From the NCBI RefSeq assembly GCF_003334385.1, contig NZ_QOWN01000081.1: DNA of 5,545 bases. One strand, 5' to 3'. A program made the position numbers and the translations under genes. How positions within the stretch are numbered: the stretch's first letter is position 1; each line of letters starts with the position of its first letter. Positions 415-5,444 of the stretch are shown piece by piece. Below the pieces are notes generated by a model. It was not told where the DNA came from, made no database searches, and saw only the letters and a program-made list of their open reading frames with translations. The stretch comes from Escherichia coli. GTDB lineage: Bacteria; Pseudomonadota; Gammaproteobacteria; Enterobacterales; Enterobacteriaceae.

Positions 415-1830
415 ATGAAAATCAAAACTCGCTTCGCGCCAAGCCCAACAGGCTATCTGCACGTTGGCGGCGCGCGTACTGCTCTTTACTCCTGGCTTTT
501 TGCACGTAACCACGGCGGTGAGTTCGTGCTGCGTATTGAAGACACCGATCTTGAGCGTTCCACGCCGGAAGCTATCGAAGCCATTATGGATGGCATGAAC
601 TGGCTGAGCCTGGAGTGGGATGAAGGTCCGTACTACCAGACCAAACGTTTTGATCGCTACAACGCGGTGATCGATCAGATGCTGGAAGAGGGCACTGCTT
701 ATAAATGCTATTGCTCTAAAGAGCGCCTGGAAGCGCTGCGCGAAGAGCAAATGGCGAAAGGTGAGAAGCCGCGTTATGACGGTCGCTGCCGCCACAGCCA
801 TGAGCATCATGCTGATGATGAACCGTGTGTTGTACGTTTTGCTAACCCGCAGGAAGGTTCTGTTGTTTTTGACGATCAGATCCGTGGTCCGATCGAGTTC
901 AGCAACCAGGAACTGGACGATCTTATTATCCGCCGTACCGATGGTTCCCCAACCTATAACTTCTGTGTGGTTGTCGATGACTGGGATATGGAAATCACCC
1001 ACGTTATCCGTGGCGAAGACCATATCAACAACACGCCACGCCAGATCAACATTCTTAAGGCCCTGAAAGCGCCGGTGCCGGTTTACGCGCACGTTTCTAT
1101 GATCAATGGCGATGACGGTAAAAAACTGTCCAAACGTCACGGGGCAGTCAGCGTAATGCAGTATCGTGATGACGGTTATTTGCCAGAAGCACTGCTGAAC
1201 TATCTGGTGCGTCTGGGCTGGTCCCACGGCGATCAGGAAATCTTCACTCGTGAAGAGATGATCAAATACTTCACTTTGAATGCCGTCAGCAAATCTGCCA
1301 GTGCGTTCAACACCGACAAGCTGCTGTGGCTGAACCATCACTACATTAACGCGCTGCCGCCGGAGTATGTTGCTACTCACTTACAGTGGCACATTGAGCA
1401 GGAAAATATCGATACCCGTAACGGCCCGCAGCTGGCTGATCTGGTGAAACTGCTGGGCGAACGCTGCAAGACGCTGAAAGAGATGGCACAGAGCTGCCGT
1501 TATTTCTACGAAGATTTTGCTGAGTTCGATGCCGACGCCGCGAAAAAACATCTGCGTCCGGTAGCGCGTCAGCCGCTGGAAGTGGTTCGTGACAAACTGG
1601 CCGCGATTACTGACTGGACCGCTGAAAACGTTCATCACGCTATTCAGGCGACGGCGGATGAGCTGGAAGTGGGTATGGGTAAAGTTGGTATGCCGCTGCG
1701 TGTCGCCGTAACCGGTGCGGGGCAGTCTCCAGCACTGGATGTTACCGTTCACGCAATTGGTAAGACCCGCAGTATCGAGCGTATCAACAAAGCGCTGGAT
1801 TTTATTGCTGAACGCGAAAATCAGCAGTAA
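415..1830 (+). CDS. gltX: glutamyl-tRNA synthetase (GluRS), class I aminoacyl-tRNA synthetase, 471 aa
   Basis: A 471-codon ORF with ATG at 415 and a Shine-Dalgarno AAGG 7 nt upstream. The translation carries the class I HIGH-type motif (HVGG, codons 16-19) and a KMSKS-type motif (KLSKR). A Cys-x-Cys-x24-Cys-x-His zinc-binding signature (C98, C100, C125, H127; nt 706..795) is present, as expected for E. coli GluRS. Length and N-terminus ([19 protein letters not shown]) match E. coli GltX as I recall. Confidence 0.97.
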
Positions 1831-1847
1831 TTAGCGTGTAAAAAGAT

Positions 1848-1881
1848 AAACGGCAGGAGATAATATCCTGCCGTTTTTTAT
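1848..1881. terminator. bidirectional intrinsic terminator between convergent gltX and yfeD
   Basis: A perfect 7-bp GC-rich stem, CGGCAGG (1851..1857) pairing with CCTGCCG (1867..1873), encloses a 9-nt loop. It is preceded by an A-tract (1848..1850) and followed by TTTTTT (1874..1879), so either strand sees a hairpin followed by a U-tract. It sits between the gltX stop (1830) and the yfeD stop (1882). Confidence 0.75.
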
Positions 1882-2274
1882 TTATGCTGATTCGTCAATA
1901 TCGAGACGGGCGAGGAAATTGCGAATTCCTTCACGTGACAAAAATTGCGCGACTTTTTCCTGCTCAATGTCTGTCATATTATCTATCGCGTTGATGATTT
2001 GTCGATACGCCGGGGCGCGTGCTCCAGGAGCGTATTCAGCAATTCTCTCTTCAGCTTCCATCAACATTGGTGTGTTATGGAAGGCTGGCGTGTTCTGAAT
2101 AAACTCGCAAACTTGCGTATCGACCAGAATAAGTCTGGCACGACCGCCTTTCACGCCGGGAAATTTTTCCGTTTTCCAGCCTTTTTCTCTGATCCAACGG
2201 TTAACAGTTTGTTTAGCCACACCGAGGCATTCAGCCAGTTCTTCGGTGGTCATTTTATTGCGTAATCTTTTCAT
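1882..2274 (-). CDS. yfeD: small putative DNA-binding protein (helix-turn-helix, YfeC/YfeD family, DUF1323-like), 130 aa
   Basis: A 130-codon ORF on the minus strand. Its N-terminal roughly 55 residues (MTTEELAECLGVAKQTVNRWIREKGWKTEKFPGVKGGRARLILV) look like a helix-turn-helix and are clearly paralogous to the adjacent upstream ORF. The start lies 1 nt after the yfeC stop, suggesting translational coupling. There is no obvious Shine-Dalgarno; an alternative start is at M8. Confidence 0.85.
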   Translation of the reverse strand: MKRLRNKMTTEELAECLGVAKQTVNRWIREKGWKTEKFPGVKGGRARLILVDTQVCEFIQNTPAFHNTPMLMEAEERIAEYAPGARAPAYRQIINAIDNMTDIEQEKVAQFLSREGIRNFLARLDIDESA

Positions 2275-3046: not shown

Positions 3047-3055
3047 AATTTCCAA

Positions 3056-3081
3056 CCCTCGCTGCAAAGCGGGGGTTTTTT
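3056..3081 (+). terminator. intrinsic terminator of the alaW-alaX operon
   Basis: Stem CCCTCGC (3056..3062) pairs with GCGGGGG (3069..3075) over 7 bp, including one G-U pair, around a 6-nt loop TGCAAA. It is followed by TTTTTT (3076..3081) and sits 10 nt after the alaX CCA. Confidence 0.8.
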
Positions 3082-3254: not shown

Positions 3255-5444
3255 ATGTTTGTGGAGCATAACCTGATAAAAAATATCAAGATATTCACAC
3301 TAGCGTTTACGCTCACCGTGGTACTTATTCAGCTATCCCGTTTTATTTCGCCACTTGCCATTATCCATTCCAGTTATATCTTTCTGGCGTGGATGCCACT
3401 GTGCGTAATGCTGTCAATCTTGTTTATCTTTGGCTGGCGCGGTGTCGTTCCCGTTTTATGCGGGATGTTTTGCACCAATCTGTGGAACTTTCATCTCTCT
3501 TTTTTACAGACTGCGGTCATGCTCGGTAGCCAGACGTTTGTCGTGTTGTGTGCCTGCGCAATATTACGCTGGCAGCTGGGGACGCGTTGGCGTTATGGAT
3601 TGACCAGCCGATATGTCTGGCAACGTCTGTTCTGGCTTGGTTTGGTGACGCCGATCGGCATCAAATGCAGCATGTATCTTGTGGGGAGCTTCTTTGATTT
3701 CCCGCTAAAGATATCCACCTTTTTCGGCGATGCGGATGCCATTTTCACGGTCGTTGATTTGCTAAGCCTTTTCACCGCTGTGCTGATTTACAACATGCTT
3801 TTCTACTATCTCACTCGCATGATTGTAAGTCCCCACTTTGCGCAGATATTGTGGCGCAGGGATATCGCTCCGTCGTTGGGCAAAGAGAAACGCGCATTTA
3901 CCTTAAGCTGGCTGGCAGCGTTAAGCGTGCTGCTACTTCTGTTGTGCACACCTTATGAAAACGACTTTATTGCCGGTTACCTGGTACCCGTTTTCTTCAT
4001 CATCTTTACCCTCGGGGTCGGTAAGCTTCGCTATCCGTTTTTAAATCTCACCTGGGCTGTTTCAACGCTTTACCTTCTGAATTACAACCAGAACTTTTTG
4101 CAAGGGGTGGAAACCGAATATTCGCTGGCATTTATTCTTGCGGTGCTGATTTCCTTTAGCGTTTGCCTGCTCTATATGGTGCGCATTTATCATCGCAGTG
4201 AATGGCTTAATCGCCGCTGGCATTTGCAGGCGCTGACAGATCCGTTAACGCTCCTACCCAACTTTCGTGCGTTGGAACAAGCGCCGGAGCAAGAGGCGGG
4301 CAAGAGTTTTTGCTGCCTGCGCATTGATAATCTTGAGTTTATGAGTCGTCATTACGGCTTAATGATGCGCGTTCACTGTATCCGCTCAATTTGCCGTACG
4401 CTGCTGCCGTTGATGCAGGAAAACGAAAAGTTGTATCAATTGCCGGGTAGTGAACTGCTGTTAGTGCTGAGCGGGCCGGAAACGGAAGGGCGACTCCAGC
4501 ATATGGTTAACATCCTGAATAGTCGGCAAATTCACTGGAACAATACCGGGCTGGATATGGGCTATGGTGCTGCCTGGGGGCGTTTTGATGGAAATCAGGA
4601 AACCCTGCAACCCTTGTTGGGGCAGTTAAGCTGGCTGGCGGAGCAATCCTGCGCACATCATCATGTGCTGGCGCTGGATAGCAGAGAGGAGATGGTTTCC
4701 GGGCAGACCACTAAACAGGTGCTATTGCTGAATACCATTCGCACGGCGTTAGATCAGGGTGATTTGCTGCTCTACGCCCAGCCAATTCGCAACAAAGAGG
4801 GTGAAGGTTATGATGAGATCCTCGCGCGACTGAAATATGACGGCGGCATTATGACCCCGGATAAGTTTCTGCCCCTTATTGCTCAGTTTAACCTTAGCGC
4901 GCGTTTTGATTTGCAAGTGCTGGAATCCTTGTTGAAGTGGCTGGCAACACACCCTTGCGACAAAAAAGGACCGCGCTTTTCAGTCAATTTAATGCCGCTC
5001 ACGCTGCTGCAAAAGAATATTGCCGGGCGGATTATTCGTCTGTTTAAGCGTTATCACATCTCCCCGCAGGCGGTCATTCTTGAGATCACCGAGGAGCAGG
5101 CGTTTTCTAACGCAGAAAGCAGCATGTACAACATCGAGCAGCTGCATAAGTTTGGTTTCCGGATTGCGATTGATGACTTTGGCACCGGATATGCCAACTA
5201 CGAACGGTTAAAGCGTTTGCAGGCTGATATCATCAAAATTGATGGCGTCTTTGTGAAAGATATTGTCACGAACACGCTGGATGCGATGATTGTGAGATCA
5301 ATTACCGATCTGGCGAAAGCGAAGTCATTGAGTGTGGTCGCGGAGTTTGTCGAGACGCAACAGCAGCAGGCGCTATTGCATAAGCTCGGGGTGCAATATC
5401 TGCAAGGGTATTTGATTGGTCGCCCGCAGCCATTAGCTGATTAA
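3255..5444 (+). CDS. pdeA: c-di-GMP phosphodiesterase: N-terminal multi-pass membrane (MASE-type) domain, degenerate GGDEF domain, EAL domain; 729 aa
   Basis: The long ORF ends at TAA 5442..5444. I chose the ATG at 3255 (MFVEHNLIKNIK...) because it gives the 729-aa length I recall for E. coli PdeA/YfeA. The frame is open back to a GTG at 3138 and an ATG at 3195, so the start is uncertain. The N-terminal roughly 320 aa are strongly hydrophobic, consistent with multiple transmembrane segments. The middle domain resembles GGDEF but has PGSEL (nt 4443..4457) where GG[DE]EF is expected. The C-terminal domain carries EAL-type motifs: EIL at 4815..4823 in place of EAL, plus EITEE, DDFGTGYA, KIDG, EFVE and QGYL. 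Confidence 0.88.
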   Translation: MFVEHNLIKNIKIFTLAFTLTVVLIQLSRFISPLAIIHSSYIFLAWMPLCVMLSILFIFGWRGVVPVLCGMFCTNLWNFHLSFLQTAVMLGSQTFVVLCACAILRWQLGTRWRYGLTSRYVWQRLFWLGLVTPIGIKCSMYLVGSFFDFPLKISTFFGDADAIFTVVDLLSLFTAVLIYNMLFYYLTRMIVSPHFAQILWRRDIAPSLGKEKRAFTLSWLAALSVLLLLLCTPYENDFIAGYLVPVFFIIFTLGVGKLRYPFLNLTWAVSTLYLLNYNQNFLQGVETEYSLAFILAVLISFSVCLLYMVRIYHRSEWLNRRWHLQALTDPLTLLPNFRALEQAPEQEAGKSFCCLRIDNLEFMSRHYGLMMRVHCIRSICRTLLPLMQENEKLYQLPGSELLLVLSGPETEGRLQHMVNILNSRQIHWNNTGLDMGYGAAWGRFDGNQETLQPLLGQLSWLAEQSCAHHHVLALDSREEMVSGQTTKQVLLLNTIRTALDQGDLLLYAQPIRNKEGEGYDEILARLKYDGGIMTPDKFLPLIAQFNLSARFDLQVLESLLKWLATHPCDKKGPRFSVNLMPLTLLQKNIAGRIIRLFKRYHISPQAVILEITEEQAFSNAESSMYNIEQLHKFGFRIAIDDFGTGYANYERLKRLQADIIKIDGVFVKDIVTNTLDAMIVRSITDLAKAKSLSVVAEFVETQQQQALLHKLGVQYLQGYLIGRPQPLAD

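Follow-up and report, generated by a model that had tools for sequence, protein, structure and literature searches.

The stretch of DNA analysed here, referred to as the window, comprises 5,545 nucleotides of the Escherichia coli contig NZ_QOWN01000081.1 and carries, according to ORF and tRNA scans and to a megablast comparison with complete E. coli genomes, the gene order lysV/valU–gltX–yfeD–yfeC–alaW/alaX–pdeA. It is K-12 sequence: of 5007 bases aligned with MG1655 (99.98% identity), only position 4072, inside pdeA, differs, with an A in the window and a G in MG1655. The coordinates of the two are interconverted by subtraction (MG1655 = 2521087 minus the window coordinate). The ORF scan and the comparison with MG1655 place gltX on the + strand at 415–1830, and yfeD and yfeC on the − strand at 1882–2274 and 2276–2635, respectively, in agreement with the preliminary description, which had called gltX and yfeD as convergent genes. 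The gltX stop codon, TAA, occupies positions 1828–1830, the yfeD stop codon, also TAA (TTA on the + strand), lies at 1882–1884, and the 51-nt gap between the two contains a single hairpin. At the opposite end of gltX, the window has one tRNA-Val gene followed directly by tRNA-Lys (positions 2–156), while MG1655 and other E. coli have valU-valX-valY-lysV, with three tRNA-Val genes; the cluster in the window looks like the result of a 242-bp loss via recombination between identical tRNA-Val copies.

The hairpin is formed by a perfect 11-bp inverted repeat, able to fold in the RNA of either strand, with a left arm at 1848–1858 (AAACGGCAGGA), a 7-nt loop at 1859–1865 (GATAATA), and a right arm at 1866–1876 (TCCTGCCGTTT). 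On the + strand, the gltX stop is followed, in order, by TTAGCGTGTAAAAAGAT, the left arm, the loop, the right arm, and TTTAT, and then by the TTA of the yfeD stop. A 7-bp GC stem had been reported previously, and the sequence in question, CGGCAGG/CCTGCCG (1851–1857/1867–1873; six G-C pairs and one A-U pair), is present, but represents only the core of the helix, which is extended to 11 perfect pairs by four A-U pairs, one on the inner side and three on the outer. The GC-closed core hairpin (CGGCAGGA, the loop, and TCCTGCCG) spans positions 1851–1873 on both strands. The distances of 18 and 9 nt given earlier between the stop codons and the stem are right as coordinate differences (1848 − 1830 = 18 and 1882 − 1873 = 9), with the former counted from the extended stem and the latter from the GC core. 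The gltX stop codon lies 17 nt ahead of the extended stem and 20 nt ahead of the GC core, and the yfeD stop codon, in the yfeD sense, lies 5 nt and 8 nt ahead of them.

The free energy of the GC-rich stem-loop ranges from −14.2 (GC core) to −17.8 kcal/mol in the gltX sense, and from −13.3 to −17.5 kcal/mol in the yfeD sense. The fold energy of positions 1848–1881 and of their reverse complement, which had been suggested as a check on the hairpin, is thus about −17.7 kcal/mol on either strand, with z about −6.8 (z = −6.85 for the 34 nt of the + strand and −6.79 for the − strand), and none of the 200 shuffles matched it. Within the window, this is the sole perfect inverted repeat of at least 8 bp with a loop of 3–8 nt, and an 11-bp inverted repeat arose in five of 300 shuffled windows. 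A consensus terminator scan found the hairpin to be terminator-like on both strands, although the scan returned 11 sites in total, against 6.2 expected, so a bare pattern match carries little weight. The Rfam scan of the window recovered tRNAs only, with two sub-threshold chance hits overlapping the hairpin. The palindromic hairpin between gltX and yfeD is a real, conserved, and ordinary transcription terminator.

In the gltX direction, the tail of the hairpin (UUUUUUAUUUAU) is a U-run that is uninterrupted and lies directly 3' of the stem, with a run of six T at 1874–1879 and a U-tract at 1874–1881 (UUUUUUAU) that has seven U in its first 8 nt and an nT of 5.16. The SMRT-Cappable-seq data of Yan et al. 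2018 (PMC6131387, Supplementary Data 1) include, in both growth conditions, a reverse-strand unit that contains b2400 (gltX) alone, with a TSS at 2520730 and a TTS at 2519207, which corresponds to window position 1880, one base past the six-T run. In one condition, 193 reads started at the gltX TSS, with 54 ending at the TTS, four passing it by at least 50 bp, and three ending within 50 bp, while the respective counts in the other condition were 334, 171, seven, and 16. From these counts, approximately 4–7% of the reads that reach position 1880 pass it. Termination at the hairpin in the gltX direction is supported by this published 3' end and its low read-through, and the earlier proposal of the hairpin as the gltX terminator stands. 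The 3' end was labelled a “novel TTS”, that is, one with no match to an EcoCyc-listed terminator at that time (PMC6131387), and is already present in a published table. The hairpin is an element of an already known kind. The curated Term-seq data of Adams et al. 2021 (PMC7815308), which cover three growth conditions, have no 3' end at 25192xx on either strand, but this absence is weak negative evidence, even for gltX, because only approximately 900–1200 dominant ends are listed per condition. A search of the literature text for gltX together with termination found nothing relevant.

There is no material difference, in the gltX direction, from canonical intrinsic terminators, such as that of alaWX, which share the GC-rich stem of 7–11 bp, the short loop, the six T directly after it, the position 17–20 nt past the stop codon, and a 3' end mapped in the U-run. 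The alaWX terminator itself (ACCCTCGC ... GCGGGGGT, followed by a T-run, at 3054–3077) is conserved across the same enterobacterial genera and, as in the gltX–yfeD hairpin, its stem is conserved while its loop drifts. In Enterobacter, the inner stem of the alaWX terminator is paired differently (ACCCTCGTC AAAA GACGAGGGT).

In the yfeD direction, the transcript past the hairpin is encoded by the A-rich flank of the + strand (the portion at 1839–1847 reads AAAAAGAT), and its tail at 1839–1850 of the − strand, UUUAUCUUUUUA, consists of three U, AUC, and five U, with six U in the first 8 nt and an nT of 3.70. Each strand had been described as reading as a hairpin plus a U-tract, which holds for the + strand, but not for the − strand, where UUU is followed by the AUC interruption, giving UUUAUCUUUUU. 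The two directions were ranked by a d score with modern energy parameters, the formula of which reportedly goes back to d'Aubenton-Carafa and co-workers in 1990; only the ranking of the values is meaningful, with the gltX sense at +36.5, the yfeD sense at +6.2 (marginally positive), and the alaX terminator at +37. The hairpins were picked for scoring with a limit on length, as a safeguard against over-extended helices closed by A/U pairs. The yfeD-sense rows of Salmonella and Kluyvera, in which an unrelated hairpin was scored, were left out of the length-limited scoring, and the value for Salmonella is taken from the scoring without a limit.

The preliminary description had proposed mapping the 3' ends on both strands, and published data place the gltX end at 1880, but have no yfeD or 25192xx(+) end in Supplementary file 1 of Adams et al. 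(PMC7815308) and no yfeCD TTS in Supplementary Data 1 of Yan et al. (PMC6131387). Both lists are abundance-thresholded. In the latter, the yfeC|yfeD unit has TSSs at 2518406 and 2518421, with no TTS called. The Term-seq data include one 3' end 128 nt inside the yfeC ORF (MG1655 2518595) and another 14 nt ahead of the yfeC start (2518453), which correspond to window positions of about 2492 and about 2634 on the − strand (PMC7815308), and suggest that much of the transcription of yfeCD is stopped or processed early. The scores of these ends are about 2000, against 10^5–10^6 for the neighbouring tRNAs, and yfeCD thus appears to be weakly expressed.

The proximity of the yfeD stop codon may also be important. 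The tR2 terminator is almost fully repressed when located 8–9 bp from a stop codon, whereas its efficiency is 0.12 to 0.8 at 17–18 bp and reaches its maximum beyond 30 bp (Li et al., PMC4824070). By analogy with tR2, ribosomes that terminate at yfeD may mask the hairpin in a similar way. The hairpin had been proposed as a terminator shared by both genes, of which the gltX half has its mapped 3' end, and the yfeD half is read from the sequence, with an interrupted U-tract, a d of about +6, a stop codon 5–8 nt away, and no mapped end. The hairpin is a plausible, but weaker-looking, terminator of yfeD, and the reading of a shared terminator is only partly supported.

Further transcription barriers have been reported beyond the hairpin on both strands. 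The Rho regions reported by Adams et al. 2021 (PMC7815308, Supplementary file 2) include one at 2519434(+), antisense to gltX, with upstream/downstream counts of 138/20 without bicyclomycin (BCM) and 137/104 with BCM (score 5.2), and one at 2519097(−), antisense to yfeD, with counts of 95/43 and 83/117, respectively (score 3.1). The former lies about 190 nt past the hairpin, at about window position 1653, and coincides with a stretch rich in C and poor in G in the gltX antisense RNA (1607–1747 on the − strand, +100 to +240 past the hairpin), in which C reaches 0.44 and G 0.20 at +120 to +200. The latter lies on the gltX-sense strand at approximately 1990 (+ strand), about 110 nt past the hairpin and not at the hairpin itself, and the composition scan of this strand found no clear C>G stretch near 1990. 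The bicyclomycin data consist of low read counts in 800-nt windows, in which read-through is not distinguishable from antisense RNA started downstream. The Rho-sensitive RNA may be read-through rather than newly started antisense RNA; on the gltX strand the downstream count with BCM (117) is higher than the upstream count (83), an excess beyond the approximately 5% read-through that points to additional antisense starts. Since Rho-sensitive RNA is found past the hairpin on both strands, other barriers exist besides it, and to say that it prevents convergent read-through, as had been done earlier, goes too far.

The gltX gene and the yfeD homologue are convergent in all the loci examined, in 10 genera, with a gap of 25–66 nt that contains one hairpin. 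These genera are Escherichia (five species or lineages), Salmonella, Citrobacter (three species), Enterobacter, Leclercia, Lelliottia, Trabulsiella, Yokenella, Kluyvera, and Cronobacter; the YfeD search of genome contigs recovered six loci, and the wider sampling was obtained by exact-protein look-ups. The stem ACGGCAGG/CCTGCCGT is found in at least one species of nine of the 10 genera, with different loops (GATAATA, AGAGATAC, GAAGACG, TTTC, TTAT, GAAAA, ATGAC, GTAA, and others), which vary between genera from 4 to 8 nt in length. Unrelated GC hairpins occupy the same place in Kluyvera (GCGGG/CCCGC), Cronobacter (GCCGGC GCAA GCCGGC), and C. sedlakii. In Cronobacter (L014, 3914–3944), the whole of the 25-nt gap is TAA G AAAAAA GCCGGC GCAA GCCGGC TT, followed by TTA, so that the gltX terminator has the stop codon of the yfeD homologue within its T-run, and the gltX stop lies right beside the A-run, making this the most compact and symmetric version of the junction among the loci examined.

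Across 13 sequences of nine genera, seven of the 11 stem pairs never vary, and the sole change in the 8-bp conserved stem is that from A-U to G-U in C. freundii. Covariation was considered as evidence for the stem and discarded, given that only the outermost A-U pair and the loop-closing pair, where the alignment is uncertain, have changes on both sides, and the functional support thus comes from the conserved position and architecture, together with the turnover of the stem in three lineages. The invariance of the stem might also be read as a two-strand constraint, in which a G·U on one strand is an A·C on the other, but this reading was rejected because the one-way alaX terminator is equally invariant in the same genera; its invariant stem and drifting loop imply that the invariance says nothing specific about use in two directions.

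The tails are less uniform. Most genera retain or extend the A-tract, several have near-symmetric flanks, and the yfeD-sense tail equals the gltX-sense tail in quality in Enterobacter, Leclercia, and Cronobacter. The yfeD-sense d is +48 in Enterobacter, +42 in Leclercia and Cronobacter, about +6 in E. coli, Lelliottia, and C. freundii, and −13 in C. amalonaticus, which has no A-tract, while the gltX-sense d is positive in all those examined except Trabulsiella and C. sedlakii, the latter having poor tails in both directions. As predicted by these scores, two-way strength is variable at this junction and the termination of gltX is nearly constant. The better tails hint that two-way termination has been selected in some lineages, and that E. 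coli could exceed its score.

Within E. coli, a K-12-like allele of the junction is found in about 3000 genomes, and a second allele, about 88% identical over the 141-nt query, in about 1950. In one example of the latter (L001, 1501–1640 against window 1790–1930), the outer ten stem pairs are unchanged, while the inner A-U is replaced by an A·C mismatch, and the loop is AGAGATAC, as against GATAATA in the window. The gltX 3' end, the hairpin loop, and yfeD fall into two clear allele classes, at ≥99% and about 88% identity, with few intermediates.

In 546 of 5426 complete E. coli genomes (about 10%), homology ends just past the T-run (window 1879–1886). A 1747-bp element of the IS200/IS605 family, with a tnpA remnant and tnpB, and without a target duplication, is inserted between ATTTAT and GCTGATT in one of the loci examined (L002, 3096–4842; the same layout is found in L004), and gives yfeD a new TGA stop in both. 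In another (L003, from 3090 onward), IS200C follows directly after the T-run, and yfeD is truncated. Two different elements of this single-strand transposon family thus adjoin the same terminator. Given that yfeD lies 1.7 kb from the hairpin in the IS-bearing strains, it can do without the hairpin.

The best explanation, to which a probability of about 0.62 is assigned, is that the hairpin is the intrinsic terminator of gltX and a weaker terminator or pause for yfeCD, and that Rho acts on both strands further downstream. The GC-rich stem would form in the nascent gltX RNA, and the monocistronic transcript would be freed at about 1880 owing to the weakness of the rU:dA hybrid in the six-U run. 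Given the perfect palindrome and its A-rich 5' flank, the yfeCD transcripts coming from the other side would meet the same stem and then the poorer, interrupted U-tract. In the yfeD direction, the hairpin would most likely be a partial terminator or a pause site, rather than an efficient terminator. For RNA that passes the hairpin, whichever the direction, Rho would end transcription within some 100–200 nt, which would limit the antisense RNA over gltX and yfeD.

A fully shared and efficient two-way intrinsic terminator, at which both gltX and yfeCD would end, is unlikely, but fares best among the alternatives. It would fit the terminator-like pattern on both strands, the nearly equal hairpin energies, and the retention of the A-tract in most genera, with near-symmetric flanks in several. 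The yfeD-sense tail of E. coli, with its six U in 8 nt, also scores similarly to the gltX-sense tails of Salmonella and E. albertii, and the yfeC|yfeD unit given by full-length reads coincides exactly with the operon in RegulonDB (PMC6131387). These points have to be set against the absence of a yfeD 3' end from both published datasets (PMC7815308, PMC6131387), a proximal U-run of only 3 nt, with its low d and a stop codon so close to the stem, and the Rho-sensitive region on the same strand about 190 nt downstream. The loss of the A-tract in C. amalonaticus, the poor tails of C. sedlakii in both directions, and the IS found between yfeD and the hairpin in approximately 10% of the E. coli genomes also count against it.

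Both intrinsic terminators and bidirectional terminators between convergent genes are well known in E. coli. The latter normally differ in read-through by direction, and the terminator shared by can and hpt, for example, has 93% termination in one orientation and 85% read-through in the opposite one (SMRT-Cappable-seq, PMC6131387). Like the can/hpt terminator, the gltX–yfeD element is one palindromic hairpin with A-rich and T-rich flanks between convergent units; unlike it, the gltX–yfeD hairpin has a mapped 3' end one way and, the other way, an interrupted U-tract set against a stop codon.

It is distinctly unlikely that the element works strictly one way, with the A-rich flank serving only to extend and strengthen the gltX hairpin, and with yfeCD being ended by Rho, decay, or premature termination. 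The Rho region antisense to gltX, with its C-rich stretch, would be expected in this case, as would the Term-seq ends inside yfeC and its leader, which suggest that many yfeCD transcripts stop early, and both the yfeD stop codon against the stem and the IS-bearing strains would also fit. Even so, a hairpin of −13 kcal/mol followed by UUUAUCUU is unlikely to be without effect, and most genera retain or extend the A-tract. A-tracts reportedly enhance termination in the same direction, a finding said to be that of Chen and co-workers in 2013.

Improbable, and ranked below the strictly one-way element, is a collision-assisted terminator, in which the hairpin pauses the polymerases and head-on gltX and yfeCD polymerases, together with trailing ones, release the transcripts. 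A class of overlapping bidirectional terminators has been described between convergent E. coli genes by SEnd-seq, in which the hairpin is required and intrinsic termination is weak in either direction alone (Wang, Ju and Liu preprint 2022). The gltX–yfeD layout resembles this class, being a convergent pair with one hairpin in the overlap and a possible pause. The class is, however, described as Rho-independent and as unlike intrinsic terminators, whereas the gltX–yfeD hairpin is a textbook intrinsic terminator one way, flanked by Rho-sensitive regions. The gltX sense is, by its sequence, canonical and strong, and needs no collision, and the apparently weak expression of yfeCD would make collisions rare for the gltX polymerases. 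Neither the text of the preprint nor the accessible portion of its supplement names the pair, nor does it have an entry in the accessible portion of the supplement of a terminator-prediction paper.

More speculative, and given very little probability, are two further roles, the first of which is that of a gate kept leaky on purpose for transcripts from yfeD. The hairpin would be masked by ribosomes that stop 5–8 nt from the stem, and the read-through from yfeCD, followed by the action of Rho on the C-rich stretch, would provide a translation-dependent dose of antisense RNA over the 3' end of gltX. Separately, because two different IS200/IS605 elements sit directly beside the hairpin, it may be a preferred target of the single-strand transposases of this family, which could favour either its single-stranded DNA form or the T-rich flank.

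That a dimeric regulator, such as YfeC or YfeD, binds the palindrome as DNA, so that it would not be an RNA element, is hardly credible, even though it is a perfect palindrome beside two genes of HTH proteins and is conserved in sequence across genera, given that the motif of YfeC determined by ChIP-exo does not resemble CGGCAGG, being an inverted repeat rich in TTC with 6 nt between its halves, in a paper that makes no mention of gltX, that loops of 4 to 8 nt would break a fixed half-site spacing, that three lineages have swapped the stem for an unrelated GC hairpin in the same place, and that the nearby alaX terminator likewise has an invariant stem and a variable loop.

The reading of the hairpin as an intrinsic terminator of gltX, backed up by Rho, provides an essential aminoacyl-tRNA synthetase gene with a documented intrinsic terminator in its annotation, and offers a worked example of how a palindromic terminator between convergent genes can differ in strength by direction. 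The strands and the genera differ in the quality of the tail, the spacing of the stop codon, and the downstream Rho sites. For annotation pipelines, a combination of hairpin, A-tract, and T-tract should not be called a two-way terminator without checking each tail and the 3'-end data. The locus has little importance beyond its correct annotation, and nothing in it departs from a known kind.

Two minor features of the 3' end of gltX may also be recorded. PdhR was considered as a protein that binds the hairpin and was rejected, since its gSELEX peak lies elsewhere, within gltX and about 75 nt upstream. This peak has been assigned to AATTGGTAAGACCCGCA (window 1756–1772), a PdhR-box-like sequence with 10 of 14 matches (PMC7660256), which is unrelated to the hairpin. 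A 10-bp helix is also predicted at 1802–1830 (UUAUUGCUGA ... UCAGCAGUAA), where the gltX ORF ends, with the stop codon included in it, and may be a simple consequence of the conserved coding sequence of gltX.
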